From NCBI GenBank assembly GCA_963835295.1, contig CAWIEX010000012.1, forward strand, positions 646,089 through 678,088: a DNA stretch of 32,000 nucleotides, in the 5' to 3' direction. The position numbers and the translations under genes were made by a program. This stretch comes from an uncultured Actinomycetes bacterium (GTDB lineage Bacteria > Actinomycetota > Thermoleophilia > Solirubrobacterales > Solirubrobacteraceae). Of the stretch, positions 9,351-32,000 are shown in pieces. Below the pieces are notes generated by a model. The model was given only the letters and a program-made list of their open reading frames with translations. It ran no database searches and had not been told where the DNA came from. Each line of letters starts with the position of its first letter. The stretch's first letter is position 1.

Positions 9351-10292
9351 GTGCCTGAGAAGTCAGGGAACCGGCCGGCGACTCTAACTTCTGGCGCCGA
9401 GAGGGGTCAAGCGGGCGCCCAGCGGTCCTCCGCACGTGTCCGCGCTGCGACCGTTCGTACCCCCGACGCCGTCGCCGGTGCCGCGCAGCTGGCCTGCGTC
9501 CTGGAGGTCAGCGCCGAGAAGCCGGGCAACATCACGCCGAGCCACGACTTCCACGACACCACCTACGAGGACATGGTGCGCAGCGCGATCGCGGTCGGCC
9601 CCGAGCTTGCGCGCGCGGGTGAGCGCGGCGTGGGCGACACGGTCCTGGCGGTCGTGCAGGCGTCGCGGCGGGCGGCGCCGGCGAACACGAACCTCGGGAT
9701 CGCGTTGCTGCTCGCTCCGCTGGCCAGGGCGGCGCTCTCGGGCGGGCCGCTGCGGGCGGGGCTCGCGGCGACGCTGGGCGCGCTCGACGTGGCCGACGCC
9801 CGGGCCGCGTACGCGGCGATCCGCCTCGCCGGGGCCGGCGGCCTGAGCGAGCGCGTCGAGCACGACGTGCGCTCCGAGCCGACGGTGCGCCTGCGCGAGG
9901 CCATGGCGAGCGCCGCCGCCCGCGACTCGATCGCCGCGGAGTACGTGAGCGACTTCGCCTTGACCTTCGAGACGGCTACTCCCGCGCTCGTCGCGGCGCT
10001 GGGCGACGGGCTCGGCGAGCGCGACGCGATCGTCGAGCTTCACCTGCGGCTGCTCGGCGCCGCGCCGGACACCCTCATCGCGCGCAAGCGCGGCGCCGAG
10101 GCCGCGGCGCGGGTGTCGGCGCGGGCACGCGACGTCCTGAGCGCCGGAGGGGTGCGCACGGCGGCCGGCCAGCAGGCCCTGCGCAGCTTCGATGCGTCGC
10201 TGCGCGAGCCGGGCAACGCGCTGAACCCGGGGACCACCGCCGATCTCGTGACAGCGACTCTGTTCGTCGCGCTGCTCGAAGGTATCCTCTGA
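9351..10292 (+). CDS. Triphosphoribosyl-dephospho-CoA synthase (CitG/MdcB)-like protein, H4MPT-island type
   Basis: In the frame of track ORF 9201..10292. '[25 protein letters not shown]' matches the CitG 'E..xxPKPGxV' region, and '[13 protein letters not shown]' and 'GTTADL' are also present. The start is uncertain. I chose GTG 9351 because TATCGT (TANNNT) lies 6 nt upstream. ATG 9324 would overlap the fae start codon. Confidence 0.65.
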
Positions 10293-10341
10293 CGCCGTCG
10301 CACCGGGCGAGCCACTTCTCCTGATTGCTCTGAGCGCGCGC

Positions 10342-16932: not shown

Positions 16933-16943
16933 CCGTCGCGATC

Positions 16944-17828
16944 GTGGGCTCGAGCGGCGGCTGGCATGCGCAGCAGCTCACCGATGCGCTGGCGGCGCGC
17001 GGGCACGAGCATCGCGTCCTGCCCGTGACGCGCATGATCGGGCGCATCGACGGCGACGTCGCCGTGCGCAGCCGCGACGTGGGGCTCGACGACTGCGACG
17101 CCGTGATCGTGCGCGGCATCCCGCGCGGGTCGCTGGAGCAGGTCATCTTCCGCGTGGACGCCCTGCACGCGCTCGAGGCGCGCGGCGTGACGTGCGTCAA
17201 CGGCCCGCGCGCGCTCGAGCGCACCATCGACAAGTTCCTCGCCTCGGCGCTGCTGGCGCGCGCGGGCGTGCCCACGCCGCGGACGGTGGCCTGCGAGCGC
17301 TCCGACGACGCGCTCGAGGCCTTCGAGGAGCTCGGCGGCGACGTCATCGTCAAGCCGCTGTTCGGCGCGATGGGCGCGGGTATGACGCGGGTGGACGACG
17401 CGGACGTCGCCTACCGCGTCTTCCACGCCCTGGAGCTCGAGCGCGCCGTCTACTACCTGCAGGAGACGCTCCCGCACGACGGCCGCGACCTGCGCGCGCT
17501 GGTCGTCGGCGGTCGCGTGCTGGCGGCGATTGAGCGGGTCGGCACGGGGTGGCGCGCCAACCTCGCGCGCGGCGCCCGAGCGCAGGCCACGCAGCTGAGC
17601 CCCGACCAGGAGCGCGTGTGCCTGGAGGCGGCGGCGGCCCTCGGCGTCGACTACGCGGGGGTCGACGTGCTGCGGGCCGCGGACGGGCGCGACTACGTGC
17701 TCGAGCTCAACGGCATCCCCGGCTGGCGCGGCCTGCAGGAGGCCACGGGCGCCGACGTGGCCGCGGCGCTCGTCGCGCACCTCGAGACCCTGGTCAGCGC
17801 AGCTCCGCCAGCTCGCGCGGGCCGATGA
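16944..17828 (+). CDS. RimK-family ATP-grasp ligase (MptN-like, tetrahydromethanopterin:glutamate ligase candidate)
   Basis: In the frame of track ORF 16242..17828. Matching segments are 'DKFLASALLARAGVPTPRT', 'VIVKPLFGAMGAGM', 'RALVVGGRVLAAIER...WRANLARGA' and 'GVDVL...YVLELNGIPGWRGLQEATG'. The first canonical start is GTG 16944. An in-frame CTG 16929 overlaps the mch stop (see finding). Confidence 0.8.
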   Translation: MGSSGGWHAQQLTDALAARGHEHRVLPVTRMIGRIDGDVAVRSRDVGLDDCDAVIVRGIPRGSLEQVIFRVDALHALEARGVTCVNGPRALERTIDKFLASALLARAGVPTPRTVACERSDDALEAFEELGGDVIVKPLFGAMGAGMTRVDDADVAYRVFHALELERAVYYLQETLPHDGRDLRALVVGGRVLAAIERVGTGWRANLARGARAQATQLSPDQERVCLEAAAALGVDYAGVDVLRAADGRDYVLELNGIPGWRGLQEATGADVAAALVAHLETLVSAAPPARAGR

Positions 17829-18570
17829 CGCCGCGGTGCAGCGCGGTGGCGACGAGCGCGCCGGCGGCCCCCGCGGCCTCGAGCGCGCGCAGGTCCTCGA
17901 CGTCGCGCACGCCGCCGCCGGCCAGCAGCTCGAGCCCGGGGAACGCGGCGTGGAGCTCGGCGATGAGCGCGACGTCCGGGCCAGCCCCGCTGCCGACGCG
18001 CGCGAGATCGAGGACGATCGCCTCGCGCAGGCCGGCGCGCTGCAGGCGCACGAGGGCGTCCGTCGCGGGCAGGCCCGCGAGCTGCGGGTCGGGCGACAGC
18101 ACGCGCCCGTCGCGCAGGTCGACGCTCAGGACCAGGGCGCCGTCGGGCAGCTCCGCGACCAGGCGGTCGAGGGCGGCGGGGCCACTCAGCGTCTCGGTCC
18201 CGACGATGACGCGATGCACGCCGAGGTCCAGCAGCGCCTGCGCCCGCGCGGGCTCGCTGACGCCGGCGTCGACCATGACGCGCGCCTCGCCCGCGAGCGC
18301 GCGCAGCAGGGCGCGGTGGTCGCCCGCCGCGTCGCCGATCGCGGCGCCGCCGCTCCCCGCTGCGTGCTCGCTTTCCCCGACGATCGCGTCGAGGTCCGCG
18401 ACGTAGATCTCCTCGAGCCCCAGCGCGTTGCGGAACCCGCGCGCGAGGGCCAGCGCGTCGCCGTCGTCGCCGCCGATGGCGCTGTGGACCGGGCGATAGC
18501 GTTCGCGCTCGCCGCGCACGGCGTGGACCGCCGTGGCGCCCTTGAGATCGATGACTCCGATGACACGCAT
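17794..18570 (-). CDS. HisA/HisF-family (beta/alpha)8-barrel protein, H4MPT-island type
   Basis: These are the last 258 codons of track ORF 17794..19053, from ATG 18570. Matching segments are 'MRVIGVIDLKGATAVHAVRG...YVADLDAI...VMVDAGV...VIVGTETL...AIVLDLARVGSGAGPD...LLAGGGVRDVEDL'. Confidence 0.75.
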   Translation of the reverse strand: MRVIGVIDLKGATAVHAVRGERERYRPVHSAIGGDDGDALALARGFRNALGLEEIYVADLDAIVGESEHAAGSGGAAIGDAAGDHRALLRALAGEARVMVDAGVSEPARAQALLDLGVHRVIVGTETLSGPAALDRLVAELPDGALVLSVDLRDGRVLSPDPQLAGLPATDALVRLQRAGLREAIVLDLARVGSGAGPDVALIAELHAAFPGLELLAGGGVRDVEDLRALEAAGAAGALVATALHRGVIGPRELAELR

Positions 18571-19601
18571 TCCCGCCACGGCGGCGGCCACGCTAGCAGT
18601 GGACATCGGCGGCGCGAACACCAAGGCCGCGTCGCTCGAAGGGGAGGCGCTGCGGACCGTCTCGCGCCCGTTCGAGGTCTGGCGCGACCGCGAGGCGCTC
18701 GCCGCGGTGCTGCGCGACGTGGCGGCCGAGGTGTCCGCGGGGCCGACCGACGGCGTGGCCATCACCATGACCGCCGAGCTCTCGGACGCGTTCCGGACCA
18801 AGCGCGAGGGGGTGGCGTTCGTCCTCGATGCGGCCGAGGAGGCGTTCGGCGACCGGCCGCTGAGCGTGCTGACGACGGGCGGCGAGCTCGTGTCCGTCGC
18901 GGCGGCGCGCGCGCGGCCGTGGGATGTCGCCGCCGCCAACTGGGTGGCGACGGCGCTCGCGGTGGCGCAGGCGCTCCCCGACGCGCTGCTCATCGACGTC
19001 GGCAGCACGACCGCCGACATCGTCCCGATCGCCGATGGGCGCGTCGCGGCCACCGGGCAGGACGACCTGCACCGGCTGCTGGCCGGGGAGCTCGTCTACA
19101 CCGGCGTGCTGCGCACCAACCTCGCGGCGATCGCGCCGCGCGTGCCGGTCCCCGGCGGGTGGTGCCCGGTGTCCTCGGAGTACTTCGCCATCAGCGCCGA
19201 CGTCCATCTCGTGCTCGGACACCTCGCGCCGGAGGCCTACGACTGCCCGACGCCCGACGGCCGCCCCGCCAGCGCCGCCTTCGCGCGCGAGCGCATCGCC
19301 CGGCTGGTGTGCTCTGACGTCGAGCAGCTCGAGGAGGCGACGATCGATGCCATCGCGGCCTTCCTGCACGCCGAGCAGCTGCGCCAGCTCGAGGAGGCGG
19401 CGCGCCGGGCCAGGCCCGCTGCCACCCGGCGCGCCCGTCGTCGCCGTCGGCTCGGGCGCCTTCCTCGGTCGCGAGGTGGCGGCGCGCCTTGGGCGGGCGG
19501 TCGCCGACGCCCCGGCGCCGTGGGGCGCGACCGGAGGCGAGGTCGCGCCCGCCGCCGCGCTGGCCGCGCTGCTGGCGGCGCGCCTGCGCGAGCCGTGCTG
19601 A
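18560..19601 (+). CDS. Hydantoinase/oxoprolinase-like H4MPT/methanofuran pathway protein (MfnF-like), with an apparent 1-nt frameshift near 19406-19430
   Basis: The N-terminal ~285 aa lie in the frame of ORF 18533..20245 ('LAVDIGGANTKAA...LIDVGSTTADIVPI...ELVYTGVLRTN'). The credible C-terminus 'GAPVVAVGSGAFLGREVAARLGRAV...AAALAALLAARL' lies in the frame of ORF 18924..19601. The span is 1042 nt, which is 3n+1. Confidence 0.7.
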
Positions 19602-20245
19602 CCGTCGTCAAGGTCGGCGGTGGGCTCGGCCGCGGGGCCGGCGACGAGGCGCTGCGCGCGCTGTGCCGCGCTCTCGGGGAGCTGGGGGAGCTCCACCCGC
19701 TGCTCGTCGTCCCCGGCGGCGCGTGGTTCGCCGACGCGGTCCGGGAAGCCGACAGCCGCTTCGTGCTGCCCGCGGCCACCTCGCACCACATGGCGGTCCT
19801 CGGGATGGAGCAGTTCGGCTGGCTGCTGAGCGAGCTGATCCCGGGCGCCGTGCGCTGCGCCGACCTCGCCTGCGCTCGCGAGCTCAGCGCCGGCCAGGTC
19901 GCCGTGCTGCTCCCCGCGGGGGTGCCCCTCGAGGCGCTGCCCGCATCGTGGGAGGTGACGTCGGACTCGATCGCAGCGTGGGTGGCCGGTGAGGTCGGCG
20001 CCGGGCGCCTCGTCCTGGTCAAGGAGGTCGAGGGACTGTTCGCGGACTGGCCCGCGCAGGGTGAGCCGATCGCTCGGATGACCGCCGCGGAGCTTGGCGC
20101 GCTGGCGCCCGCCGGCGTCGACGAGCACCTGCCCACGGTGCTCGCGGAGGCGAGCTTCGAGACCTGGGTGATCAGCGGTCGCGACCCCGAGCGCCTCGTC
20201 GAGCTGCTCGAACGCGGCGCGACGGTGGGCACCCGAATCGCCTGA
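19595..20245 (+). CDS. Amino-acid-kinase-fold protein (Asp/Glu/uridylate kinase family; MfnE-like)
   Basis: GTG 19595 overlaps the upstream stop (GTGCTGA). Matching segments are 'VLTVVKVGGGLGRGAG...LLVVPGGAWFADAVR...SHHMAVLGMEQFG...VTSDSIAAWVA...LVLVKEVEGLF'. Confidence 0.7.
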   Translation: MLTVVKVGGGLGRGAGDEALRALCRALGELGELHPLLVVPGGAWFADAVREADSRFVLPAATSHHMAVLGMEQFGWLLSELIPGAVRCADLACARELSAGQVAVLLPAGVPLEALPASWEVTSDSIAAWVAGEVGAGRLVLVKEVEGLFADWPAQGEPIARMTAAELGALAPAGVDEHLPTVLAEASFETWVISGRDPERLVELLERGATVGTRIA

Positions 20246-20267
20246 GCGCCCTTGCTACCGTGGCCCC

Positions 20268-21152
20268 ATGGACGCGCAGCAGCGCCAGGACCCCGGGCCT
20301 GCCACCCTGGCCGACCCCACGCTCCGGGAGTACAAGCTCGTCGGCGGGATGGAGACCTTCGCCAACCGCAGCTTCTGGCCGGGCTTCTTCTCCCGCGTCG
20401 CTGCCCGCAAGCAATGGGATGCGGCGGCGATCGACTTCGCACCCGACGTCCGCGCGTGGCAGGAGCTTCCCGACGATCGCCGCCAGCGCCTCACCACGAT
20501 TCTCGCCGGCTTCCGCGTGGCCGAGGACGCCGTCGCCGAGAATCTCACGCCGTTCGTCGTCGCGGCGAACAGGGAGACCCTGGCCTCCCAGGAGAGCCTG
20601 ATGGCCTGGACGTTCTCCCTGCAGCGCCGCGACGAAGCGCGCCACGCGCGCCTGTTCGACCGCATCGCGGGAGAGATACTCGGGCTGCCCGGCGAGACCC
20701 CCGACGAGCGCCGCGCGGCGGCCCGCGAGTATGCCCCGCCGGCGATCCTCGAGCTCTTCGAAGACCAGTTGCCCGCGTTGACCGCGGAGCTCACGGCGGG
20801 TGAAGCCGGGCTGGGCGAGGGCGTCAGCCTCTACCACATGCTGCTCGAGGGAGTCGTCTTCAACGCCGGCACCAACGCGCTGCTCGACGACCTGGCCGAC
20901 GGCGCGCTGCCCGGAGTGCGCGAGGGTGTGGAGCGCGTCGAGCGCGACGAGCGCTGGCACGTGGGCTTCGGCCTGCGCTGCCTGATCGAGACCCTGCCCT
21001 CTCAAGAGCGCATCGATGACCTGGTCGCGCGCGGCGGAGCGGCCGCCGCGGCCTGGGGTGACGCCGTCCCAGCCGCCATACGCGAGCGCAGCGCACGCAC
21101 GTGCGCACACCGGCTGCACGTCTCCGGGTTCACCGAGACGCGCGCGGCGTAG
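20268..21152 (+). CDS. Ferritin-like diiron/dimetal carboxylate protein, ribonucleotide reductase R2-like
   Basis: 294 aa. The R2 layout is 'FWPGFF...W..IDF..D...W..L', followed by 'AEDAVAENL', 'RRDEARHARLF', 'LLEGVVFNAG' and 'ERDERWHVGFG' (E, ExxH, E, ExxH). No R1 subunit lies nearby. Confidence 0.75.
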   Translation: MDAQQRQDPGPATLADPTLREYKLVGGMETFANRSFWPGFFSRVAARKQWDAAAIDFAPDVRAWQELPDDRRQRLTTILAGFRVAEDAVAENLTPFVVAANRETLASQESLMAWTFSLQRRDEARHARLFDRIAGEILGLPGETPDERRAAAREYAPPAILELFEDQLPALTAELTAGEAGLGEGVSLYHMLLEGVVFNAGTNALLDDLADGALPGVREGVERVERDERWHVGFGLRCLIETLPSQERIDDLVARGGAAAAAWGDAVPAAIRERSARTCAHRLHVSGFTETRAA

Positions 21153-21849
21153 CGGCGCACGCCGCGCGCAGGGCGCGGACTCGCGTGGGGTCGAGCGACC
21201 CCGTGCGGCGATCCTCTGCACAGGCGGCCGAGCGGACGCCGACGATGTCGGCGCCGGTCGCGCCCACGGCCGGCAGGTCGTCCGCGCGCAGCGCACCGGC
21301 CAGCGCGATCGCCAGCCCCAGCTCGTGGGCCTCAGCGACGAGCGCCGTGAGCGCGTCGGGCGCGAGCCAGTCGAGGAGGCCGCGGCCGTCCTTGACCGCC
21401 GTGTCGAGCAGGCACACGTCGACGCCGGCGGCGCGCGCAACGCGCGGCAGCAACTCGGGCGCCAGCGGCGCCGACGCTACGCGTCGGGCGTCCGCGTAGG
21501 CGCCCGCCACCACCACCGCGTCGGGCGCCGCCTCGCGCACCGCGCGCAGCAGCGCGACCGCCTCGGACTCGGTGGAGGCGCCCCAGAGCCCGACCTTCAC
21601 GAAGGCCGCGCCGCTGTGCGCGGCGCCGAGCGCGGCGAGCGCGGCGGTGCCGGGCAGGTTGGGCATGTCGCCGATCGCGGCGCTGACGGGCAGCGCGTCG
21701 GGAACGGCCGCGCGGATGGCGGCTATCACCGCCGGCGACGGCGCTCCCAGCGAGCCCTCGGCCGGGTTCTTGACGTCGACGATCTCGGCGCCGGCCGCCG
21801 CGGCCGCGCCCGCCTCGCCGGCGTCGACGACGCTCACGAGCAGCTTCAT
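21130..21849 (-). CDS. mfnB: (5-formylfuran-3-yl)methyl phosphate synthase (DUF556; methanofuran biosynthesis)
   Basis: Taken from ATG 21849 in track ORF 21130..22449. Matching segments are 'MKLLVSVVD...EIVDVKNPAEGSLGA...VSAAIGDMP...FVKVGLWG...LLDTAVKDGRGLLDW...ALAGAL...DIVGVRSAAC', collinear with my recollection of archaeal MfnB. Confidence 0.88.
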   Translation of the reverse strand: MKLLVSVVDAGEAGAAAAAGAEIVDVKNPAEGSLGAPSPAVIAAIRAAVPDALPVSAAIGDMPNLPGTAALAALGAAHSGAAFVKVGLWGASTESEAVALLRAVREAAPDAVVVAGAYADARRVASAPLAPELLPRVARAAGVDVCLLDTAVKDGRGLLDWLAPDALTALVAEAHELGLAIALAGALRADDLPAVGATGADIVGVRSAACAEDRRTGSLDPTRVRALRAACAATPRASR

Positions 21850-22783
21850 CAGCGCTCCACCAGCGCGCCGCGGTTGTCGAACGTCACGAGCTCCACGCTT
21901 GCATCGCCCGCGACCACGTCGTGCATGCGATGCGCGAGCTCGCGTCCGGCCGTCTCGCTGCCGACGACGCCGTAGACCGCGGGCCCCACGAGCTCTGGCC
22001 GGCGCCGGCCGCCCCGTGGCGCAGCAGCGCCTCGACGAGCGCGCCGGCGTGCGGATGGAAGCGCCCGCCCTGCACGGTGGCGAACGCGTCGCCGACGAGC
22101 TGCTGGACCCGCGTGAGGGCCGCCCCGAACTCCTCGACCTCGCCCTCGACCAGCGCCGGGAGCAGCGACGTGAGCACGAGCTGCGCGATCTCCGCCGATC
22201 GCTCGGGCGAGGGCACGAGCCGCCCGAACGCCTCCTCCTCGGCGACCCCGGACAAGCCGGCCTCGGCGCGCGGGATGACGAGCACGACGCGCCACTCCTC
22301 GGGCATCGGGTGGTGCGCCAACAGCGGCGCGGGGCGCTCGACCCCGCGCCGCACCCCGCCCTCGACGACGAGGCCCCCCAGCGCGAAGGTCCACGTCCCC
22401 ACCGCGGAGCGCGCCGCGCGGCCGACCGCCTCGGCCAGCTGCGGCGCATCGACCGTCCGCCCGTGCAACGCGGCCAGCGCCTGACCCACCGCCAGCGCGA
22501 GCTTCGTGCCCGAGCCCAGGCCGACGTGCGACGGGATCGCCTCGAGCACGCTCAGGCGCGCACCGCCCGCGAGCCCCAGCGCCTCCTGGCAGCGCCGCGC
22601 GAAGGTCAGCGCGCGCTCCGCTTCGGCCCCCTCGGCGGACAGCTCGTCGGCCGTCCGCGCCTCGACCACGACCGCGGGGCGGTCGACCGACACCCCGAGC
22701 CCGCCGAAGCGCCGCCCGCTGTCGCCGGCGACCGCGAGCATGCCCAGGTGCAGGCGCGCCGGCGCCTCAACCCGGACGGTCAA
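21849..22783 (-). CDS. mptG: Beta-ribofuranosylaminobenzene 5'-phosphate synthase (GHMP-kinase fold), with an apparent 1-nt frameshift at 21980-21987
   Basis: TTG 22783 overlaps the DUF447 stop (TTGA). Matching segments are 'TVRVEAPARLHLGM...IPSHVGLGSGTKLALAVG...GAGQSSWGP' in the frame of ORF 21884..23077. The family-like C-terminus 'AVYGVVGSETAGRELAHRM...VTFDNRGALVER*' is in the frame of ORF 21849..22394. The span is 935 nt, which is 3n-1. Confidence 0.8.
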
Positions 22784-23361
22784 GGGTCGCCGACCGCCGC
22801 TCGCAGGTGGCCCGCGACGTACTGCATCGCGTCGCGCTCGCGTGGCCCGGCCGTCTTGTCGACGAGCACCTGCAGCCGGTCCAGCTCGGCGCGGAGGTCC
22901 TCCGCCGCGAGCAGGCGGGCTCGCGAGGCGAGGATCGACGCCTCGAGGACCGCGTGGCGCGCACGATTGAAGCCGAGGAACTCGCGCCCGGTGCCACGGG
23001 CGACGACGACGGTGCTGACGCGGGCCCGCTCCGTGCTCTCGTCGATCGCCTCCACCCGGACCTCGCGCCAGGAGCACGCATCGTCGAGCACCGCGCCCTC
23101 GACGCTGGCCGCCGGACGCGTCGCCGGATGCGGGTCACCGAGCGCGGCCTGGCTGAAGAGCAGGATGTCGTCGGTCAGGTTCACCACCGCCGCCCCGGTC
23201 GCCCGCAGGTTGCGCAACGTCCGCGTCCCGGCGTAGGGCTTGATGACGATCCGCTCCTCGCCCCACTCGACGCCCATCGCGCCGCAGTTGACGCTGCCGT
23301 CGAGGTTGATCGTCGTCACCACGGTCTCGATGATCGGCCCAGCCGGGCGGGCGCCGTCCAT
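22780..23361 (-). CDS. DUF447-family split-barrel (flavin-binding-like) protein of H4MPT islands
   Basis: 193 aa. Matching segments are 'IIETVVTTINLDGSVNCGAMGVEW...IKPYAGTRTLRNL...AVVNLTDD'. ATG 23361 directly follows the GS-like stop (TAGATG). Confidence 0.7.
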   Translation of the reverse strand: MDGARPAGPIIETVVTTINLDGSVNCGAMGVEWGEERIVIKPYAGTRTLRNLRATGAAVVNLTDDILLFSQAALGDPHPATRPAASVEGAVLDDACSWREVRVEAIDESTERARVSTVVVARGTGREFLGFNRARHAVLEASILASRARLLAAEDLRAELDRLQVLVDKTAGPRERDAMQYVAGHLRAAVGDP

Positions 23362-24693: not shown

Positions 24694-24717
24694 CGTGGGC
24701 AGAGTGTAGATGCGGCC

Positions 24718-26790
24718 ATGCGCACGCTCCTGATCGACAACTACGACTCGTTCACCTTCAACCTCTTCCACCTGCTGGGGGAGGTCAACGGCCAGGAGCC
24801 GATCGTCGTGCGCAACGACGATCTGGCCTGGGAGGAGCTCGCCGCGCTGCCGGTGGACAACATCGTGATCTCGCCCGGGCCCGGGCGTCCCGAGCACGAG
24901 GGCGACGTCGGCATCTCGCTGGAGGTGCTCCAACGCGCCGAGATTCCCGTGCTCGGCGTCTGCCTGGGCCACCAGGCGCTGGCCCACGTGACCGGCGGCG
25001 CGATCGACCATGCCCCCGAGGTCATGCACGGGCGCCTGAGCCCGATCCACCACGACGGGCGCGGCCTGTTCGCCGGCATCCCGCAGGGCTTCGCGGCCGT
25101 GCGCTACCACTCGCTGGTCGTGGGCGGCCTGCCCGCCGAGCTGCGCGTGACGGCGTGGACGCCCGACGACGTCGTCATGGGGCTCGAGCACGCGTCGCGC
25201 CCGCTGTGGGGCGTCCAGTTCCACCCCGAGTCGATCTCCACCGAGCACGGCCGCACCCTGCTGCGCAACTTCCGCGACCTCACGCGCGAGCGGCGGCGTC
25301 CCGCGGCGCGCGCGGCCCGCTCGCCCGCCCAACCGGCTGCCGGCACGCGCTTGCACCATCGCACGCTCGAGACGTGGTGCGATCCCGAGGCGGCGTTCGT
25401 GGCCCTCTACGGCGCGCGCGATCACGCCGTGTGGCTCGACAGCTCGCGCGTCGAGCGGCGGCTCGCGCGCTTCTCGTTCATGGGCGCCCCAGAAGGCCCG
25501 CTCGGCCAGATCGTGCGCTACGACGTCGCCGACGGGCTGCTCACGGTGCAGCGCGCGGACGGGCGCGAGGAGCTGCGCGAGAGCGTCCTGGACTACTGCG
25601 AGCGCGAGCTCGCTCGCCTGGGCGCCGACGCCTCCGGCGTGCCCTTCGACTTCACCTGCGGCTTCGCCGGCTACCTCGGCTACGAGCTCAAGGCCGAGCT
25701 GGGCGGAGAGCTCGTGCACCGCTCGGCGCTGCCCGACGCGGCGCTGCTGCTCTGCGACCGGCTGATCGCCTTCGATCACGCCGAGCAGCGCGTGCACCTG
25801 CTCGCGCTCGCGGACGCAGAGGGGGCCGCGCAGGCCGACGCCTGGCTGACCGCCACCGAGCGCGAGCTGCAAGGGCTCGCCGGCCGGCCGCCGCCGGCGC
25901 TTGCCGCCTCACCCGCCCCGCCCGCCCCGCTGTCGTTCGTCGCGCGAGACGATCGCGACGCCTATCTGGCCAACATCGCGGCCTGCAAGCACGAGATCTT
26001 CGAGGGCGAGACCTACGAGATCTGCCTGACCACCGAGCTGCACAGCGACGACGCGATCGATCCGCTCGCCGCCTATCGCGCCCTGCGCGCCCGCAACCCG
26101 GCGCCGCACGCAGCGCTGCTGCGCCTCGGCGACGTGTCGGTGCTCAGCTCCTCGCCGGAGCGCTTCCTGCGGGTCGATCGGGAGCGGGTGGTCGAGTCCA
26201 AGCCGATCAAGGGCACCGCCCCGCGCGCGGCCCATCCCGCCGAGGACGCCTACCGGGGCGCGGCGCTGGCGGCCGACGAGAAGTCGCGCGCCGAGAACCT
26301 CATGATCGTCGACCTCGTCCGCAACGATCTCGGCCGCGTCTGCGCGCTGGGCAGCGTGGACGTCCCGGCGCTCATGGCGATCGAGTCCTACGCCACCGTC
26401 CACCAGCTCGTGACGACCGTCCGCGGCCGGCTGCGCGACGATGCCACCGCGATCGACTGCGTGCGCGCCGCGTTCCCGGGCGGCTCGATGACCGGCGCGC
26501 CGAAGCTGCGCACGATGAAGATCATCGACCGCCTCGAGGCCGGCCCGCGCGGCGTGTACTCCGGCGCGCTGGGGTTCCTCTCGGTCAATGGCACCGCCGA
26601 CCTCAGCATCGTCATCCGCACGCTGGTGGCGTCACGCCACGGCCTGCAGATCGGGACTGGCGGCGCGATCGTGGCGGCCTCGGATCCCGACGCCGAGCAC
26701 GACGAGATGCTGCTCAAAGCGCGCGCGGTGCTCGCCGCGGTCGGTGGGGTGCTCGCCGTCGACAGCGAGCTCAGCACCGCCCGCCGATGA
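24718..26790 (+). CDS. pabAB: Aminodeoxychorismate synthase, fused glutamine amidotransferase (PabA) and chorismate-binding (PabB) domains
   Basis: Taken from ATG 24718 in track ORF 22807..26790. The GATase part is 'MRTLLIDNYDSFTFNL...GVCLGHQAL...VQFHPES'. The PabB part is 'SSPERFL...KPIKGT...EKSRAENLMIVDLVRND...HQLVTTV...FPGGSMTGAPK...PRGVYSGALG'. Confidence 0.88.
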   Translation: MRTLLIDNYDSFTFNLFHLLGEVNGQEPIVVRNDDLAWEELAALPVDNIVISPGPGRPEHEGDVGISLEVLQRAEIPVLGVCLGHQALAHVTGGAIDHAPEVMHGRLSPIHHDGRGLFAGIPQGFAAVRYHSLVVGGLPAELRVTAWTPDDVVMGLEHASRPLWGVQFHPESISTEHGRTLLRNFRDLTRERRRPAARAARSPAQPAAGTRLHHRTLETWCDPEAAFVALYGARDHAVWLDSSRVERRLARFSFMGAPEGPLGQIVRYDVADGLLTVQRADGREELRESVLDYCERELARLGADASGVPFDFTCGFAGYLGYELKAELGGELVHRSALPDAALLLCDRLIAFDHAEQRVHLLALADAEGAAQADAWLTATERELQGLAGRPPPALAASPAPPAPLSFVARDDRDAYLANIAACKHEIFEGETYEICLTTELHSDDAIDPLAAYRALRARNPAPHAALLRLGDVSVLSSSPERFLRVDRERVVESKPIKGTAPRAAHPAEDAYRGAALAADEKSRAENLMIVDLVRNDLGRVCALGSVDVPALMAIESYATVHQLVTTVRGRLRDDATAIDCVRAAFPGGSMTGAPKLRTMKIIDRLEAGPRGVYSGALGFLSVNGTADLSIVIRTLVASRHGLQIGTGGAIVAASDPDAEHDEMLLKARAVLAAVGGVLAVDSELSTARR

Positions 26791-27497
26791 CAGCGCTGCT
26801 CGCGGCCGACTCGTGGCTCGTCGCCGACGGCCGCGCGCGCGCCGTCGAGCGCCACTGGGCCCGCTTCACGGCGACGTGCCGCGAGCAGGGCGTCTCGCCC
26901 GACGAGCTCGCGGCCTTCCGCGCCGAGGTCGAGCGCGCGCTGCCGTCGACGGGGCGCTGGTTCCCGCGCATCGAGCTGCGCGCGGACGGCGAGCTGGCCC
27001 TCGAGCTGCGGCCGGCGGCGCCGCGCGAGCCGGCCGTCGTGGCCTGGGTGGCCGATGTGCCCGACCCGCGCGTCGCGCCGCGGCGCAAGGGGCCCGACCT
27101 GGAGCGGCTGGGCGCCCTGCGCGAGCGCGCCGCGGCGCACGGCGCCGGCGAGGCCGTGATCGCCGACGGCGACGGCCGGCTGCTGGAAGGTGCGTACACG
27201 AGCCTGCTGTGGTGGGAGGGGGAGACGCTGTGCGCGGTCCCCGACGACGCGCCGATCCTCCCCGGGATCACGCGGGGGCTGGTGATCGAGCTGGCGCGCG
27301 CACGCGACACGCCGATGGCGCAGCGCCGCCCCCGGCCGCGGGAGCTGGCCGGCCGGGAGACATGGCTGGTCAGCGCCCTGCACGGGATCCGGGCCGTGAC
27401 GCGGTGGGCCGGCGGCGTGCTGCCGGCGATCGATACGCCGCGCGCAGCCGCCTGGCAGCGCCTGCTCGACGAGCTCGGCCCCCGTCAGCGCGTCTGA
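26787..27497 (+). CDS. pabC: Class IV aminotransferase-fold protein, aminodeoxychorismate lyase-like
   Basis: ATG 26787 overlaps the pabAB stop (ATGA). Matching segments are 'GEAVIADGDGRLLEGAYTSLLWWEG...LPGITRGLVIELA...ETWLVSALHGIRAV'. The sequence is divergent, so the function is inferred largely from coupling to pabAB. Confidence 0.6.
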   Translation: MTALLAADSWLVADGRARAVERHWARFTATCREQGVSPDELAAFRAEVERALPSTGRWFPRIELRADGELALELRPAAPREPAVVAWVADVPDPRVAPRRKGPDLERLGALRERAAAHGAGEAVIADGDGRLLEGAYTSLLWWEGETLCAVPDDAPILPGITRGLVIELARARDTPMAQRRPRPRELAGRETWLVSALHGIRAVTRWAGGVLPAIDTPRAAAWQRLLDELGPRQRV

Positions 27498-27522
27498 GCG
27501 CGGTCACCAGCGGCGCCCGAGG

Positions 27523-27581
27523 GCGAACGAGCGGTACCCCTCTGCGAGCGAACGGCACCCCCGCGAGATTCGCTGCGAACG
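27523..27581 (+). repeat. Three direct copies of GCGAACG(G/A) spaced 25 and 27 nt apart, in the 176-nt gap upstream of the dehydrogenase operon
   Basis: GCGAACG occurs at 27523-27529, 27548-27554 and 27575-27581. The first two copies are followed by a C-rich tail (GGTACCCC, GCACCCCC) and the third by GCGCCGCAC. Confidence 0.4.
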
Positions 27582-27611
27582 GCGCCGCACGGACATACGA
27601 TCCGGCTGGGT

Positions 27612-27639
27612 CGAAAGGGAGCTGCAGTGCGCCCTTTCG
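27612..27639 (+). other. GC-rich hairpin (8-bp stem, 12-nt loop) between pabC and the dehydrogenase operon
   Basis: CGAAAGGG (27612-27619) pairs with CCCTTTCG (27632-27639). No U-tract follows. The hairpin ends 34 nt upstream of GTG 27674. Confidence 0.35.
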
Positions 27640-27673
27640 GTTACAGCTGAACAATCGACGCGAGGGAGCTTCC

Positions 27674-28120
27674 GTGAGCGACACTGCCGTCGACGTATCC
27701 AAGCTGGACCACCAGAACGGGGTGACGCTTGGTCGGATCCTCGGGCGTGGAACCGTCGGACAGGCTGAGGAGGGATCCGACGGCGTCATGCGCGCCACCA
27801 TCCGGATTCCGGAGGACGAGCTGGTGTACGAGCCCGGCGTCCTCGTCATGCCCCACGGAGGAACGCTCGAGCTCACGCTCATCAACGATGACAAGAACAC
27901 GCACTGCGCGGTGCTCCCGTGCAACGGCGACTACAAGTTCATCTGGTTGGTGAACCATTCGAAGGGCCAGGCGACCCTCGAGCTCGACGGCCCGGGGTAC
28001 TACTGGTACGGCTCGCGTTCGGGCAACGACGAGGGCCGGGGCCTGACCGCCGCGATCGTCGTGGGAGGCGAGACGCCACCCGAGGCTCGCCTGGACCGCC
28101 CGCCTCAGCCGCGCCCCTAG
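27674..28120 (+). CDS. Small cupredoxin-like beta-sandwich protein lacking the type-1 copper ligand set
   Basis: GAGGGAG lies 5 nt upstream of GTG 27674, in the frame of track ORF 26588..28120. 'YEPGVLVMPHGGTLELTLINDDKNTHCAVLP' follows the cupredoxin first-half pattern. 'GPGYYWYGSRSGNDEGRGLTAAIVVGG' follows the second half, but the Cys/His/Met ligand positions are replaced. The fold call is by eye only. Confidence 0.45.
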   Translation: MSDTAVDVSKLDHQNGVTLGRILGRGTVGQAEEGSDGVMRATIRIPEDELVYEPGVLVMPHGGTLELTLINDDKNTHCAVLPCNGDYKFIWLVNHSKGQATLELDGPGYYWYGSRSGNDEGRGLTAAIVVGGETPPEARLDRPPQPRP

Positions 28121-28163
28121 ATCGACCGCCCCGGCTCGACCACACCGTGAAAAGGAGTACCTG

Positions 28164-29852
28164 ATGGCAACCGAGTACGTAGACGCAGGGCAGGCCGTCG
28201 ACAACTCGACGCTGAGCGGCATCATCGGCCACGCACCGCCGGTGGCCAAGGGCGTCACCTACGAGCGCATCCTCAACGCCCGCTCCGAGCCGCACAACTG
28301 GCTCACCTACTACGGCGCCTACGACGGGCAGCGCTACAGCCCGCTCGACCAGATCAATGCGGAGACCGTCAAGCAGCTCAAGCCGGAGTGGATGTTCCAG
28401 TGCGGTTCGGTGGGCCTGCACTCGGGCGCCTCGACGTATTCGTTCGAGGCCTCCCCGCTCATCGTCGACGGCGTCATGTTCGTCTCGGGCTGGGACGGCT
28501 GGGTCTGGGCCCTCGACGCCCGCAACGGAGACCTGCTCTGGCAGTACCGCCATGCGTCGCCGTTCGACGTGTCGCTGTGCTGCGGCAACGTCAACCGCGG
28601 CGTCGCCGTGGCCGAGGGTAAGGTCTTCGTCACCACCCTGAACGCCCATGTCGTGGCGCTCGACGCCGAGAACGGCAAGGTGGTCTGGGATCAGGTCTAC
28701 GGCGACGTCCGCGCCGGTGAGAGCGCCACGGTCGCTCCGCTCATCGTCAAGGACATGGTCATCGTCGGAAGCTCCGGCGGCGAGTTCGGCGTGCGCGGCC
28801 ACGCGGACGCCTTCAAGCTCGAGACCGGCGAGCGCGTCTGGCGCTGCTACATGGTGCCCAAGCCCGGGGAGCCGGGCTCGGAGACCTGGCCCGCCGACGG
28901 CGAGGCCTGGGCGCGCGGCGGCGCGAACTGCTGGGTCACGAGCACCTTCGACCCCGAGCTGAACCTCCTGTACTTCGGCACCGGCAACCCGTGCCCGGAC
29001 TTCGACGGCGGCGTGCGCGAGGGCGACAACCTCTACACCGATTCGGGCGTCGCGGTGGACGTCGACAGCGGTGAGATCAAGGCCCACTTCCAGTACACCC
29101 CGCACGACCTGTGGGACTACGACTCCACGATGGAGCACATCCTGTTCGACCTCGACGGGCAGAAGATGGCGGCCCACTTCGACAAGAACGGGTTCCTCTA
29201 CATCCTCGACCGCACCAACATGGAGCCGATCCGGGTCGCGCCGTTCGTCGACCGCATCGACTGGGGCGAGGTCGACGAGAAGGGCAACGTGACACCGCTG
29301 CGGTTCCCCGAAGCGGAGGGCGACCCGGTCCACTTCTGGCCGGGACCGGCCGGCGCCAAGGAGTGGACGCACGCGTGCTACAACCCGAACACGGAGCTGC
29401 TCTACGTTCCGGTGCAGGACGTCGGCGCCACGGCCACGCGCCGGCGCAGGGAGTTCAAGGAGAGCATCCCGTACTGGGGAGCCGGCGTCGCGGTGGACCT
29501 CGAGGACATGGCGGGGTCGATCAGCGCCTTCGATCCGCGCACCGGTCAGGAGCGGTGGCGCTGGGCCAACGACATCCCGATGTGCTCGTCGGTGCTGACC
29601 ACGGGCGGCGGCCTCGTCTTCGCGGGCGAGCCGACGGGGGAGTTCAACGCGCTCGACGCCAGCAGCGGTGAGCTGCTCTGGAAGTTCCAGTGCGGCAGCG
29701 GCCACCACAGCAGCCCGTCGACGTACAGCATCGACGGACGGCAGTACATCGCCGTGCCGACCGGGTGGGGCGCCTGGACCGAAGGGTTCCTGCCGGGGAT
29801 GCTCGGAGCGGGGCAGGGCAGCTCGCTCATCGTCTTCGCGCTGCCGGACTAG
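28164..29852 (+). CDS. xoxF: PQQ-dependent methanol/ethanol-family dehydrogenase with lanthanide-type D-Y-D signature (XoxF/ExaF-like)
   Basis: 562 aa. AAAGGAG lies 6 nt upstream of ATG 28164. The eight-bladed propeller W-motifs are present. There is a vicinal Cys-Cys 'SLCCGNVNRG' (28578-28583) and 'TPHDLWDYDS' (DYD at 29115-29123). No hydrophobic N-terminal signal is present. Confidence 0.85.
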   Translation: MATEYVDAGQAVDNSTLSGIIGHAPPVAKGVTYERILNARSEPHNWLTYYGAYDGQRYSPLDQINAETVKQLKPEWMFQCGSVGLHSGASTYSFEASPLIVDGVMFVSGWDGWVWALDARNGDLLWQYRHASPFDVSLCCGNVNRGVAVAEGKVFVTTLNAHVVALDAENGKVVWDQVYGDVRAGESATVAPLIVKDMVIVGSSGGEFGVRGHADAFKLETGERVWRCYMVPKPGEPGSETWPADGEAWARGGANCWVTSTFDPELNLLYFGTGNPCPDFDGGVREGDNLYTDSGVAVDVDSGEIKAHFQYTPHDLWDYDSTMEHILFDLDGQKMAAHFDKNGFLYILDRTNMEPIRVAPFVDRIDWGEVDEKGNVTPLRFPEAEGDPVHFWPGPAGAKEWTHACYNPNTELLYVPVQDVGATATRRRREFKESIPYWGAGVAVDLEDMAGSISAFDPRTGQERWRWANDIPMCSSVLTTGGGLVFAGEPTGEFNALDASSGELLWKFQCGSGHHSSPSTYSIDGRQYIAVPTGWGAWTEGFLPGMLGAGQGSSLIVFALPD

Positions 29853-29876: not shown

Positions 29877-29902
29877 CTGCCACGTCCGCGAGGACGTGGC
29901 AG
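29877..29902 (+). terminator. Perfect 11-bp hairpin with GCGA tetraloop, 25 nt after the dehydrogenase stop
   Basis: CTGCCACGTCC-GCGA-GGACGTGGCAG. No clear U-tract follows, consistent with the tract-less terminator type common in high-GC Gram-positive bacteria. Confidence 0.55.
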
Positions 29903-29944: not shown

Positions 29945-30478
29945 GTGGTCGGCAGTCTCTTCATCCTCGGATTTACGCTCAGCCTCGACAACTTCCGCAC
30001 GGCGATCGCGCTCGGAGGGCTCCAGTTCGGCTGGACCCGCGCCCTGCAGGTGGCCTTCGTGTTCGGGTTCTGCGATGCCGTCGCACCACTGGTCGGCATC
30101 CTGATCGGGGACTACTGGAGCGAGTCGATCGGCTCGACGGCCGAGTACGTCGGGGCGGCCGCGCTCGGCGCCTACGGCGTGTTTCTGATCATCCGTGCGT
30201 GGCGCACCGCGGCGACGGACGAGTTCGATCGCCCGTGGGCGGTGTTCGGCCTCCTCGTGCCGCTGAGCGCCGACAATGTCGTCGCCGGCACGAGCCTGGG
30301 TCTGCTCGGATACTCGCCGTGGATCGCCGCCCCGATGTTCGGTGCCATCACTTTCGTCATGGCGCTGGTCGGCCTGCAGATCGGGAGAGTGGCTTCTTCG
30401 GTCATCCGCATTCGTCCCGATCTCCTGACCGGGGTCGCGCTCGTCGTCATGGCCGGCATCCTGGGGCCGCGCGCATGA
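29945..30478 (+). CDS. mntP: MntP/DUF204-family membrane protein (putative divalent-metal efflux)
   Basis: 177 aa with a GTG start, strongly hydrophobic. Two DUF204-type repeats are present: 'FTLSLDNFRTAIALG' and 'LVPLSADNVVAGTSLG'. Confidence 0.65.
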   Translation: MVGSLFILGFTLSLDNFRTAIALGGLQFGWTRALQVAFVFGFCDAVAPLVGILIGDYWSESIGSTAEYVGAAALGAYGVFLIIRAWRTAATDEFDRPWAVFGLLVPLSADNVVAGTSLGLLGYSPWIAAPMFGAITFVMALVGLQIGRVASSVIRIRPDLLTGVALVVMAGILGPRA

Positions 30479-30486
30479 GCCGACGC

Positions 30487-31884
30487 CTAGGCGTGCTCGT
30501 GAGCAGCCATGCGCGTTGCGAGCTCGGTGAGCATCCGCACCCCGTAGCCGGTCGCCCCGCGACCGAACGCGTCGCCGCGATCCTCGTCGAGCAACGCCGT
30601 GCCGAGCATGTCGACATGCGCCCAGGGTCCTTCGCCCGCGAACTGCTGCAGGAAGGTCGCGGCGACGATCGGGAAGCCGAAGCTCTTCCCGGCGGTGTTG
30701 CGCAGGTCGGCGACGGTCGAATCGATGAGGGAGCGGTAGCGCGGATGCAGGGGCCAGGGCCACGCAAGATCGTCGCTGGCGTTCCCCGCCTCGACGACGG
30801 CGTCGCGCCACGAGTCGTCGGGTGCGAAGACGCCCGCGTAGAGGTCGCCCATGCCGGCGCGCATGGCGCCCGTCAGCGTGGCGAGATCGACGAGATGCGT
30901 GGCGCCGTCGCGGCGCGCCCACCACAGGGCGTCGGCGAGGATCAAACGCCCCTCGGCATCGGGGTTCGTGACCTCGACGGTGAGGCCGGCGGCGGTGGTG
31001 ATGACGTCGGTCGGTCGGATGGCGCTGGCGCTGAGCATGTTCTCGCAGGCCGGCACGACACCGGTGACCGCCAGCGGCAGCCCGAGCTCGGCGATCGCTC
31101 CCAGCGCGGCCAGGACCGCCGCGCCACCGGCCATGTCGGCCTTCTGGCGCACGATGTCCGCCTGCGGCTTGAGGAAGTAGCCGCCCGTGTCGAACGTGAC
31201 CGCCTTGCCGACGAGGGCCAGCCGGGGTGCCTGCGGTGCGCCGGCCGGCTCGTGGCGCAGCACGATGAGGCGCGGCTCGATCGGGCTGCTCCCGCCGACG
31301 GCGGCGAGCGCGCCGAGTCCGGCTTCGCCGGCCGCGATGGTCTCGACGGCGACACCCGGCACCGCGGCCGCCCGCTCTGCCAGCCCGGCGGGCGAGATCA
31401 CGTTCGCCGGCGCGTCGACCAGTTCGCGGGCGACGTTGGTCCAGCGCGCGACGAGGGCCGCGCGGGCGGCGACTGGCGCGAGCTGCTCGCCGACCCCGCA
31501 GATCACGAAGCGCTCGACGCCGCGCGGCGGCTCACCTCTGCGCCAGCGGCGTTCGTCGTAGCCGCCGATGACCGCGCCCTCGGCGAGTGCGTGCACCTGC
31601 TCCTCGAGGGAGAGGGGCAGGGACGCGTCGAGCGCCCACGCGACCGTCCCGCCGCCGCGGCACGCGCGTACCGCCCGCGCCGCAGCGGTCCGCAGCCCGT
31701 CGACGTCCGGCTGCAGAGCGACGACGGCGAGCGGGGCGCCGGCCGTGTACACCATCGCCACTGGATCGGCATCCGCAGTCGCGCGCTCCGGGGCACCAAG
31801 CTCCGCCGCCCGCGCTCCCACCGCGGCTGCGACGAGATCGGCCCCGATCGCGGACGGCTCGCCTGCACTTAGTTCGACATGCAT
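30487..31884 (-). CDS. pepA: Leucyl aminopeptidase (M17 family)
   Basis: 465 aa. Matching segments are 'LVGKAVTFDTGGYFLKP...MKADMAGGAAV...ENMLSASAIRPTDV...TVEVTNPDAEGRLILADAL...LVDLATLTGA'. Confidence 0.88.
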   Translation of the reverse strand: MHVELSAGEPSAIGADLVAAAVGARAAELGAPERATADADPVAMVYTAGAPLAVVALQPDVDGLRTAAARAVRACRGGGTVAWALDASLPLSLEEQVHALAEGAVIGGYDERRWRRGEPPRGVERFVICGVGEQLAPVAARAALVARWTNVARELVDAPANVISPAGLAERAAAVPGVAVETIAAGEAGLGALAAVGGSSPIEPRLIVLRHEPAGAPQAPRLALVGKAVTFDTGGYFLKPQADIVRQKADMAGGAAVLAALGAIAELGLPLAVTGVVPACENMLSASAIRPTDVITTAAGLTVEVTNPDAEGRLILADALWWARRDGATHLVDLATLTGAMRAGMGDLYAGVFAPDDSWRDAVVEAGNASDDLAWPWPLHPRYRSLIDSTVADLRNTAGKSFGFPIVAATFLQQFAGEGPWAHVDMLGTALLDEDRGDAFGRGATGYGVRMLTELATRMAAHEHA

Positions 31885-31958: not shown

Positions 31959-32000
31959 ATGACGTGGGTCAAGCCCAAGTTTGAGTTCGTAGAGCTGTGT
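31959..32000 (+). CDS. pqqA: PqqA-like PQQ precursor peptide, first 14 codons only (runs off the window)
   Basis: Absent from the ORF track. AGGAGG (31949-31954) is followed by a 4-nt spacer and ATG 31959. The translation MTWVKPKFEFVELC matches the PqqA N-terminal pattern M-x-W-x-K-P-x-F/Y. The diagnostic E-x-x-x-Y would lie beyond the window. Confidence 0.55.
   Translation, partial: MTWVKPKFEFVELC

Follow-up and report, generated by a model that had tools for sequence, protein, structure and literature searches.

The 32,000-nucleotide (nt) window analyzed here, positions 646,089 to 678,088 of contig CAWIEX010000012.1 (assembly GCA_963835295.1) from an uncultured member of the Solirubrobacteraceae, encodes a pyrroloquinoline quinone (PQQ)-dependent dehydrogenase of the methanol/ethanol family that has a lanthanide-type metal site, lacks a detectable export signal, and is preceded by the gene for a cupredoxin-fold partner protein. 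To our knowledge, all characterized PQQ alcohol dehydrogenases act outside the cytoplasm. We propose, at a probability of about 0.65, that these genes and their neighbors form a self-contained cytoplasmic PQQ/lanthanide alcohol dehydrogenase cassette of Actinomycetota, here in a Solirubrobacterales/Paraconexibacteraceae-like host, that was relocated from the periplasm; the localization, metal, substrate, and electron acceptor of the enzyme are what we infer here from the genes and their relatives. The proposal is carried by comparison with an exported sister clade, relative to which the actinobacterial clade appears to have lost the lipoboxes of both proteins, three of the four copper ligands of the partner, and one conserved cysteine pair of the dehydrogenase while gaining unpaired cysteines.

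The initial annotation had fixed the start of the dehydrogenase at the ATG at position 28164 on the basis of a Shine-Dalgarno sequence, AAAGGAG, and had seen no earlier start, a reading with which the frame agrees: between the preceding stop codon at 28044-28046 and position 28164 there is no ATG, GTG, or TTG. Its description of the first ~30 residues as hydrophilic, with neither an h-region nor a twin-arginine motif, also stands: the highest 11-residue Kyte-Doolittle value within residues 1-30 is 0.98, and an RR motif does not occur there. Export signals were assessed here by a hydropathy heuristic, namely the maximum 11-residue Kyte-Doolittle mean within the first 60 residues, with an h-region called at 2.0 or above. 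HMMER alignments to the mature PedH, XoxF, and MxaF chains start at residues 29-46 of the dehydrogenase, in line with the earlier observation that similarity to mature MxaF/XoxF begins after the N-terminal segment. The motif M-A-T-E/D-Y-V-D/E-A-G stands at the position at which the sister clade has a lipoprotein signal peptide, and residues 1-20 are predicted to be disordered (AlphaFold2 predicted local distance difference test, pLDDT, <50).

The same start, M-A-T-(E/D)-Y-V-(D/E)-A-G, is common to all ~80 orthologous loci that we compared, these being the best 80 (76-97% identity) of 587 stretches that encode relatives of the query in a one-genome-per-species collection. Almost all of the best 80 come from metagenome-assembled genomes (MAGs) of Solirubrobacterales/Thermoleophilia and nearly all from Actinomycetota, the closest dehydrogenase among them (97% identity) belonging to a Paraconexibacteraceae MAG; a few loci stem from other Actinomycetota, namely Allosalinactinospora lopnorensis CA15-2 and MAGs of Pseudonocardiaceae, Streptosporangiaceae, and Nocardioides. 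Three contigs labeled Acidimicrobiia (L020), Candidatus Methylomirabilota (L026), and Chloroflexia (L040) carry dehydrogenase genes that are 83-84% identical, and are either mis-binned Solirubrobacterales contigs or else the result of recent transfer. An alternative upstream in-frame start is absent from 71 of the 78 loci that could be evaluated, and in 36 of the 78 a stop codon lies within 12 codons of the ATG. We considered an upstream or frameshifted extension that would encode a signal peptide and rejected it: the seven possible extensions are nonhydrophobic (maximum 0.83) and would read the partner gene in another frame. None of the 78 loci has an upstream start with a signal peptide or lipobox, the observation that the initial annotation had held would speak against a signal-less enzyme. 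More broadly, 0 of 120 actinobacterial-clade database homologs have a hydrophobic h-region (median maximum hydropathy, 0.95), compared with 107 of 118 proteins of the sister clade and 92 of 112 representatives that are more distant still. Two other roles for the N terminus were tried and set aside. YVDAG as a general secretion tag is disfavored by its occurrence at no other N terminus in 1.5 Mb of related DNA, a small sample and hence weak evidence. An encapsulin-type cargo peptide at residues 14-28 (...SLSGIVGS...) was rejected since this segment is also kept in mature exported sister proteins, and no encapsulin or shell gene is conserved near the orthologous loci.

The dehydrogenase scores 612 bits against TIGR03075 (cutoff 480) and 288 bits against PF01011 (cutoff 26.7). 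Its best solved relative is PedH (E value, 1e-111; 40% identity), followed by ExaA (37%), the XoxF structures 4mae, 6dam, and 6oc5 (33-34%), and MxaF (~30%). The AlphaFold2 model (pLDDT, 85; predicted template modeling score, 0.89) is an eight-bladed β-propeller, which Foldseek matches to PedH (6zcv and 6zcw) with a template modeling (TM) score of 0.89 and to PedH, ExaA, XoxF, and MxaF structures overall with scores of 0.84-0.89. The loop GLHSGAST (residues 83-90; 28410-28433), an insertion relative to PedH that is common to the sister clade, is the sole internal segment of at least three residues with pLDDT <50. The Cys139-Cys140 pair and Asp318-Tyr319-Asp320, both picked out in the initial annotation, are present, align to PedH, and are invariant among orthologs; the D-Y-D signature, whose loss upon alignment would have told against a lanthanide enzyme, holds against the D-F-D of PedH in sequence as well as in fold. 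No variation was seen at Glu207, Asn275, Asp318, or Asp320 in actinobacterial-clade (40 of 40) or sister-clade (41 of 41) sequences. The dehydrogenase thus retains the full set of residues that PQQ/metal catalysis calls for, among them the Asp of the lanthanide signature.

The assignment to the lanthanide-signature type thus stands, but the placement has to be corrected, because the enzyme lies nearer to the PedH/ExaA-type ethanol dehydrogenases than to XoxF or MxaF. Among representatives clustered at 50% identity, the nearest sequence beyond the clade is 61% identical, and no other exceeds 45%. A neighbor-joining tree resolves two monophyletic sister groups, one holding the actinobacterial sequences (41 of 41) and the other those of the sister clade (41 of 41), with 61% identity between the two and ~38% to all other sequences in the set. 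On the scores against Protein Data Bank structures and this unlabeled tree, the proteins appear to be a distinct clade of lanthanide-signature PQQ dehydrogenases nearer to the PedH/ExaA type than to XoxF1-5.

The initial annotation described the enzyme as lacking XoxG and XoxJ partners. Those genes are absent, but the dehydrogenase is not partnerless: a gene of the MSMEG_3727 PQQ-associated family is its constant companion, adjoining it in 78 of 80 loci and in all 60 of the well-flanked loci, defined as those with at least 5 kb of DNA on both sides. The partner scores 252 bits against TIGR04339 (cutoff 75) and 247 bits against PF23509. Its AlphaFold2 model, with a pLDDT of only 75, has a cupredoxin fold, and the best Foldseek matches are auracyanin, Bacillus cupredoxin_1, CuA domains, and CupA (probability, 1.00; TM scores of ~0.5 when normalized to the query and 0.6-0.8 when normalized to the target). 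Its type 1 copper site is degenerate: His77 is kept, and Ser114, Asp119, and Leu124 replace the Cys, His, and Met ligands, a substitution pattern found at the three positions in 118 of 120 partner homologs, none of which (0 of 120) has a hydrophobic N terminus. Newly invariant in the remodeled partner are His61, Cys78, His95, Asp119, and Glu120, residues that, going by cupredoxin topology, would lie at or near the old copper site.

The sister clade shows the same two-gene unit in an exported form. In the nearest outgroup, P0122 (61% identity), the dehydrogenase opens with a lipoprotein signal (…LVAGC), and the upstream partner has both a lipoprotein signal (…LLASC) and the type 1 copper pattern, a His followed by Cys-x4-His-x4-Met. 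A search with P0122 led to a large clade that includes, by NCBI names, Gemmatimonadota, Longimicrobiaceae, and Thermoanaerobaculia, all of which belong to diderm phyla. Lipobox-like motifs occur in 97 of 118 sister-clade dehydrogenases. In three long sister loci besides that of P0122 the adjacent partner is again a lipoprotein with all four ligands; in all, 5 of 5 sister partners have a lipoprotein signal and 5 of 5 the His, Cys, His, and Met copper ligands. Copper proteins are generally lacking in the bacterial cytoplasm. The cysteines of the dehydrogenase differ as well. Where 41 of 41 sister sequences have a second pair, Cys and Cys, 40 of 40 actinobacterial sequences have Trp392 and Gly421 (each of the two columns holds Cys in ~37 of 84 other relatives), and mature sister enzymes have exactly four cysteines in 38 of 41 cases, against a median of nine, with 53% odd counts, in the actinobacterial clade, whose new cysteines occupy positions 256, 474, and 510 (40 of 40), 277 (36 of 40), and 405 (31 of 40). 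Exported proteins of aerobic Actinobacteria contain ~2.2 cysteines on average, and even counts are favored (PMC2823432). Inspection of the three long sister loci turned up no MntP-like, pqq, or tetrahydromethanopterin (H4MPT) genes. One sister locus (L082, 4088-9383) has genes for a copper ATPase, an outer membrane efflux protein, and a multicopper oxidase beside the dehydrogenase; in another (L084, 8773-9983 and 12996-15158), the neighbors of the dehydrogenase are a tandem pair of blue-copper partner genes and the gene for a TonB-dependent receptor.

We infer that export is the ancestral state because the rest of the superfamily is exported. The initial annotation had left cytoplasmic action and nonclassical export side by side; we clearly favor the former over the latter because four independent changes agree: loss of the dehydrogenase signal, loss of the partner signal, loss of the partner copper site, and loss of the second cysteine pair together with the gain of unpaired cysteines. 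In the scheme that we propose, an ancestral periplasmic dehydrogenase/blue-copper pair would have been relocated to the cytoplasm, where PQQ made from the adjacent pqq genes would be inserted and the metal (Ln3+, possibly Ca2+) would be imported by a linked MntP-like or CaCA transporter. The dehydrogenase would oxidize methanol or a related small alcohol to formaldehyde, and the formaldehyde-activating enzyme (Fae) and the H4MPT enzymes would capture the product in the same compartment. Electrons from PQQH2 could exit via the remodeled partner, in which His61, Cys78, His95, Asp119, and Glu120 may form a noncopper site for redox or metal delivery, or via another cytoplasmic acceptor.

The genes around the cassette (Table 1) bear on this scheme. 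Its order in the window is partner, dehydrogenase, an 11-bp hairpin, an MntP-like gene, an M17 peptidase gene on the opposite strand, and pqqA. The route next door, which the initial annotation had already taken to be Fae/H4MPT, is confirmed by Pfam and NCBIfam matches to Fae and the module genes. The C1 oxidation genes encode Fae, MtdB-like, Mch, FhcA, FhcC, and FhcD (formyltransferase) proteins, with FhcB assigned by position only, without a Pfam match; the cofactor biosynthesis genes encode MptA, DUF1464, DHPS-like, CitG-like, ATP-grasp, RimK-like, HisA-like, MfnB, MptG-like, and DUF447 proteins, the set including two ATP-grasp proteins and a hydantoinase/kinase. The PabAB fusion and the PabC-like protein presumably supply p-aminobenzoate for H4MPT. 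Arrangements vary, but 49 of the 60 well-flanked loci have at least three H4MPT-module genes no farther than 10 kb from the dehydrogenase. A glutamine synthetase-like gene (23362-24720, minus strand) sits next to DUF447 in the C1 cluster; it matches type III glutamine synthetase and γ-glutamyl ligase models, all below cutoff, and could encode a glutamyl ligase for cofactor tails or a γ-glutamylmethylamide synthetase. Positions 1-27497 amount to an essentially complete H4MPT/methanofuran cluster in a high-GC actinobacterium, and we found no description of such a cluster in Thermoleophilia in the open-access literature searched.

On the other side of the dehydrogenase, the MntP-like protein scores 35 bits against the NCBIfam MntP equivalog (cutoff, 214), which places it in the domain family only; it is a candidate metal (Ln3+/Ca2+) transporter of the cassette. 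An MntP-like, DUF204-like, or CaCA transporter gene lies within 8 kb of the dehydrogenase in 54 of the 60 well-flanked loci, and a CaCA-type calcium/sodium antiporter was seen in 13 loci (e.g., L072, 15118-16305), so what recurs from locus to locus is the presence of some cation transporter, not one particular transporter family. The preceding hairpin may be a terminator or an attenuator; it matches no Rfam family and was not called by a terminator scan, which is uninformative at 74% GC. The 176-nt region ahead of the partner gene is presumed to be the promoter/regulatory region of the cassette. A consensus promoter scan found no match there, in DNA whose 74% GC makes the scan uninformative, and neither this region nor that ahead of the MntP-like gene has an Rfam match at the gathering threshold or at E values up to 1, which leaves no known riboswitch or other known RNA at either place.

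The initial annotation had reasoned that a cytoplasmic enzyme would need intracellular PQQ, and a PQQ supply is encoded on the spot, with pqqA beginning at 31959. Whereas the window cuts this gene short, a full 24-amino acid (aa) PqqA with E-x-x-x-Y is found in L001 (~13720-13795, MTWVKPKFEFVELCSEVTSYLHHR) and L003 (~13170-13245), in both of which pqqA is followed by pqqB, pqqC, and pqqE; at least two pqq genes are present in 35 of the 60 well-flanked loci. The M17 peptidase gene is present in 29 loci, 25 of which have it between the dehydrogenase cassette and pqqB-E, and the protein may be a PqqA-processing peptidase that trims cross-linked PqqA. In a few of the M17 carriers, pqqC and pqqE are on the dehydrogenase side. 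A pterin-4a-carbinolamine dehydratase-like gene lies within ~2 kb of the cassette in 26 related loci (e.g., L074, 7945-8322, minus strand), and a GAF/HTH-type regulator gene lies downstream of the pqq genes in 20 loci.

Table 1. Features of the cassette and its surroundings, in window coordinates
Feature	Position	Strand	Remarks
H4MPT/methanofuran C1 module	2856..23361	.	Pfam matches; oxidation and cofactor biosynthesis genes
Formaldehyde-activating enzyme Fae	8813..9328	-	PF08714, 224 bits; TIGR03126, 240 bits (cutoff 118)
R2lox-like ferritin-fold protein	20262..21152	+	PF00268, 40 bits; R2-like ligand-binding oxidase models, 75 bits, below cutoff
PabA-PabB fusion and PabC-like gene	24700..27497	+	GATase, Chorismate_bind, and Aminotran_4 matches
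Intergenic region upstream of partner gene	27498..27673	+	176 nt, from PabC-like stop to partner start
Partner protein gene, MSMEG_3727 PQQ-associated family	27674..28120	+	148 aa; GTG start after GAGGGAG
Shine-Dalgarno sequence AAAGGAG of dehydrogenase gene	28151..28157	+	6 nt ahead of ATG 28164; direct reading
PQQ-dependent dehydrogenase gene, methanol/ethanol family	28164..29852	+	562 aa; lanthanide-type metal site; no export signal detected
Dehydrogenase N-terminal tail, codons 1-28	28164..28247	+	Clade-specific motif M-A-T-E/D-Y-V-D/E-A-G
Vicinal Cys139-Cys140 codons	28578..28583	+	Invariant in 80/80 orthologs and 41/41 sister-clade sequences
Asp318-Tyr319-Asp320 codons (catalytic Asp and lanthanide-signature Asp)	29115..29123	+	Aligned to PedH D-F-D
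Perfect 11-bp hairpin, CTGCCACGTCC-GCGA-GGACGTGGCAG	29877..29902	+	Between dehydrogenase stop and MntP-like start; no U-tract
MntP-like (DUF204) cation transporter, six transmembrane segments	29945..30478	+	177 aa; PF02659, 81 bits
M17 leucyl aminopeptidase	30487..31884	-	PF00883, 318 bits; divergent from pqqA
pqqA start (MTWVKPKFEFVELC...)	31959..32000	+	Last 42 nt of window; gene continues past right edge

An electron acceptor other than the usual cytochrome, which the initial annotation had called for, is indeed required. The CxxCH motif of c-type cytochromes is absent from every open reading frame (ORF) of at least 60 aa in all frames of the window, there is no XoxG or XoxJ gene, and no window gene scanned has a Pfam match to cytochrome c or a XoxJ-type binding protein. 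The idea that a cytochrome c or XoxJ is hidden among spurious high-GC ORFs was rejected, since the window has no CxxCH ORF at all and those in the 80 loci are only antisense or sporadic; a dedicated c-type cytochrome (XoxG, ExaB, or PedF) is neither present in the window nor conserved in the 80 loci. The R2lox-like protein is a speculative candidate, conceivably a di-metal oxidase for the dehydrogenase system. An R2lox-like gene lies within 10 kb of the cassette in 45 of the 80 loci by tblastn and within 3 kb in 16 of 60 loci; 8 of those 16 have no H4MPT genes nearby.

Several points weigh against a relocated cytoplasmic enzyme. The export call comes from the hydropathy heuristic, and localization is predicted from sequence. 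In known enzymes the vicinal cysteines form a strained disulfide that is needed for electron transfer; Cys139-Cys140 is strictly kept, and the cytoplasm would tend to reduce such a bond. MntP is an exporter in Escherichia coli, which equally fits metal delivery to an extracellular enzyme, and the conserved, disordered M-A-T-E-Y-V-D-A-G motif could be an unrecognized targeting signal. PedH, the nearest solved relative, is an ethanol rather than a methanol dehydrogenase. The electron acceptor is a weak point: free PQQ/PQQH2 has a potential near +90 mV, Actinobacteria respire with low-potential menaquinone, no plausible cytoplasmic acceptor for high-potential PQQH2 was found, and the partner no longer has the redox metal site from which its role would have been evident. 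Finally, a mycofactocin-synthesis mutant of Mycolicibacterium smegmatis did not grow on ethanol despite the presence of PQQ genes, and methanol did not support growth of the wild type (PMC6529628); the authors of that study excluded an overlapping role of the PQQ-dependent enzymes of this organism under their conditions.

Some of these points are what a rival explanation would predict. The dehydrogenase and its partner might act outside the monoderm membrane, reaching it without a Sec, Tat, or lipoprotein signal through recognition of the N-terminal motif or of the partner, with the MntP-like or CaCA transporter exporting metal for loading of the enzyme. Such export would make sense of a motif that is conserved across ~80 loci yet predicted to be disordered, like a short linear signal, of the metal-exporting activity of the characterized MntP-family protein, of the retained vicinal cysteines, and of the extracytoplasmic location of all characterized homologs (PMC10875860). 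We nevertheless regard it as quite unlikely: the signals of both proteins were lost together, the partner lost copper ligands that a blue-copper acceptor outside the cytoplasm would be expected to retain, and the dehydrogenase lost a structural cysteine pair and gained four to seven unpaired cysteines, contrary to the even-cysteine bias of exported proteins (PMC2823432). Nor does YVDAG recur at other N termini in the related DNA sampled, and no secretion system gene is conserved near the loci.

Two other alternatives concern chemistry. The protein could be a broad-range PedH/ExaA-like dehydrogenase acting on ethanol, another alcohol, or an aldehyde, with no special C1 role, the proximity of H4MPT genes reflecting shared regulation or chance; this fits either localization, and we consider it possible if, on balance, doubtful. 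Ethanol dehydrogenases are its closest solved structures, with the identities to PedH and ExaA given above, fewer than three H4MPT genes lie within 10 kb in 11 of the 60 loci, and M. smegmatis, a cassette carrier, did not grow on methanol (PMC6529628). An identity to PedH of only 40%, however, is too low for the substrate to be read from it, the cassette in the window abuts a 25-kb C1 module that includes Fae, and the H4MPT/Fae linkage within 10 kb persists in 49 of 60 loci despite extensive rearrangement. It is rather unlikely that the metal is Ca2+ or another cation instead of a lanthanide despite the D-Y-D signature. In its favor, the linked transporters belong to Mn2+ (MntP) and Ca2+/Na+ (CaCA) families, no lanmodulin, TonB-dependent receptor, or lut-type gene was seen near the actinobacterial loci, and a lanthanide would need to reach the cytoplasm. 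Against it, Asp320 is invariant in both clades (40 of 40 and 41 of 41), a TonB-dependent receptor gene stands beside the dehydrogenase gene in one sister locus, L084, and an Asp at this position is described as essential for lanthanide coordination/function in XoxF and ExaF (bioRxiv 10.1101/2020.02.25.964783).

If a cytoplasmic PQQ dehydrogenase exists, it changes the view of where PQQ and lanthanides act in cells, and lanthanide (or calcium) import and a high-potential cytoplasmic electron acceptor would be required. The clade is large, with 587 stretches carrying a relative of the query in the one-genome-per-species collection, and its H4MPT linkage suggests an overlooked soil methanol sink. 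Solirubrobacterales are reported to be abundant in soils and permafrost (PMC5823929). In the broadest reading, which we hold to be evenly balanced, abundant soil Actinomycetota (Solirubrobacterales/Thermoleophilia and some Actinomycetes) would have brought a periplasmic lanthanide/PQQ dehydrogenase inside the cell together with its blue-copper acceptor, remodeled the cupredoxin to do without copper and to carry a new conserved His/Cys/Asp/Glu site, which could be a new redox center or a metal chaperone, acquired a cation importer, and coupled the whole directly to Fae/H4MPT. The enzyme would then rank as the first quinoprotein, and also the first lanthanide enzyme, of the cytoplasm, and these Gram-positive bacteria would be unrecognized lanthanide-dependent methanol oxidizers. 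Cultured carriers include A. lopnorensis CA15-2, ‘Candidatus Solirubrobacter pratensis’ URHD0082, and, by family name, M. smegmatis. The open-access literature searched yielded no account of a PQQ dehydrogenase that lacks a signal or works in the cytoplasm, none of the cupredoxin partner, and none of any cytoplasmic quinoprotein.

Among known systems, PedH of Pseudomonas putida KT2440 (6zcv and 6zcw) and the ExaA/ExaF types share with the window enzyme the eight-bladed PQQ propeller, the Glu/Asn/Asp/Asp ligands, and the vicinal Cys-Cys pair. PedH is Sec-exported and periplasmic and passes electrons to a c-type cytochrome, whereas the window enzyme has no signal, no nearby cytochrome gene, a cupredoxin-like partner, seven extra cysteines, and linkage to H4MPT genes. 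XoxF1-5 resemble it in using PQQ, in having the lanthanide-signature Asp, and in being linked in the genome to formaldehyde handling, but they are periplasmic and come with XoxG and XoxJ, both missing here, and the identity is only 33-34%. A 2024 survey states that XoxF, as a periplasmic enzyme, is unsurprisingly absent from Gram-positive MAGs (PMC10875860). In a soil proteome, no protein was more abundant than a PQQ methanol dehydrogenase of Gemmatimonadetes (PMC5103831). The partner family ties the cassette to MSMEG_3726/MSMEG_3727 of M. smegmatis (TIGR04339/PF23509), a comparison made by family name. MSMEG_3726 was noted by Haft in 2011 as the lone PQQ alcohol dehydrogenase of that species, located inside a pqq cassette (PMC3023750), and the open-access literature searched yielded no function or localization for either protein.

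The closest parallel is the sister clade (P0122 and P0391-P0509; L081-L084), which shares ~60% identity, the two-gene arrangement, the metal ligands, and a conserved mature N-terminal segment (...L-S/N...G-x-A-P-P-V...) and differs in having lipoboxes on both proteins, a full copper site in the partner, and four dehydrogenase cysteines consistent with two disulfides. The paired exported and nonexported clades offer a natural experiment in how a redox enzyme and its partner adapt to a change of compartment. Cupredoxins are known acceptors of quinoproteins, amicyanin serving methylamine dehydrogenase and azurin quinohemoprotein alcohol dehydrogenase IIB. The sister-clade partner fits that model; the window partner, left with one of four copper ligands and lacking an export signal, cannot act as a classical blue-copper acceptor. 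Oxidation of methanol in the cytoplasm is itself familiar from Gram-positive methylotrophs, in which it is carried out by the NAD-dependent Mdh of Bacillus methanolicus and by the MNO/Mdo nicotinoproteins of Actinobacteria. These enzymes, which use bound NAD(P), are unrelated to a PQQ/metal quinoprotein, but in both cases formaldehyde arises where it is consumed, as we propose for the cassette described here.

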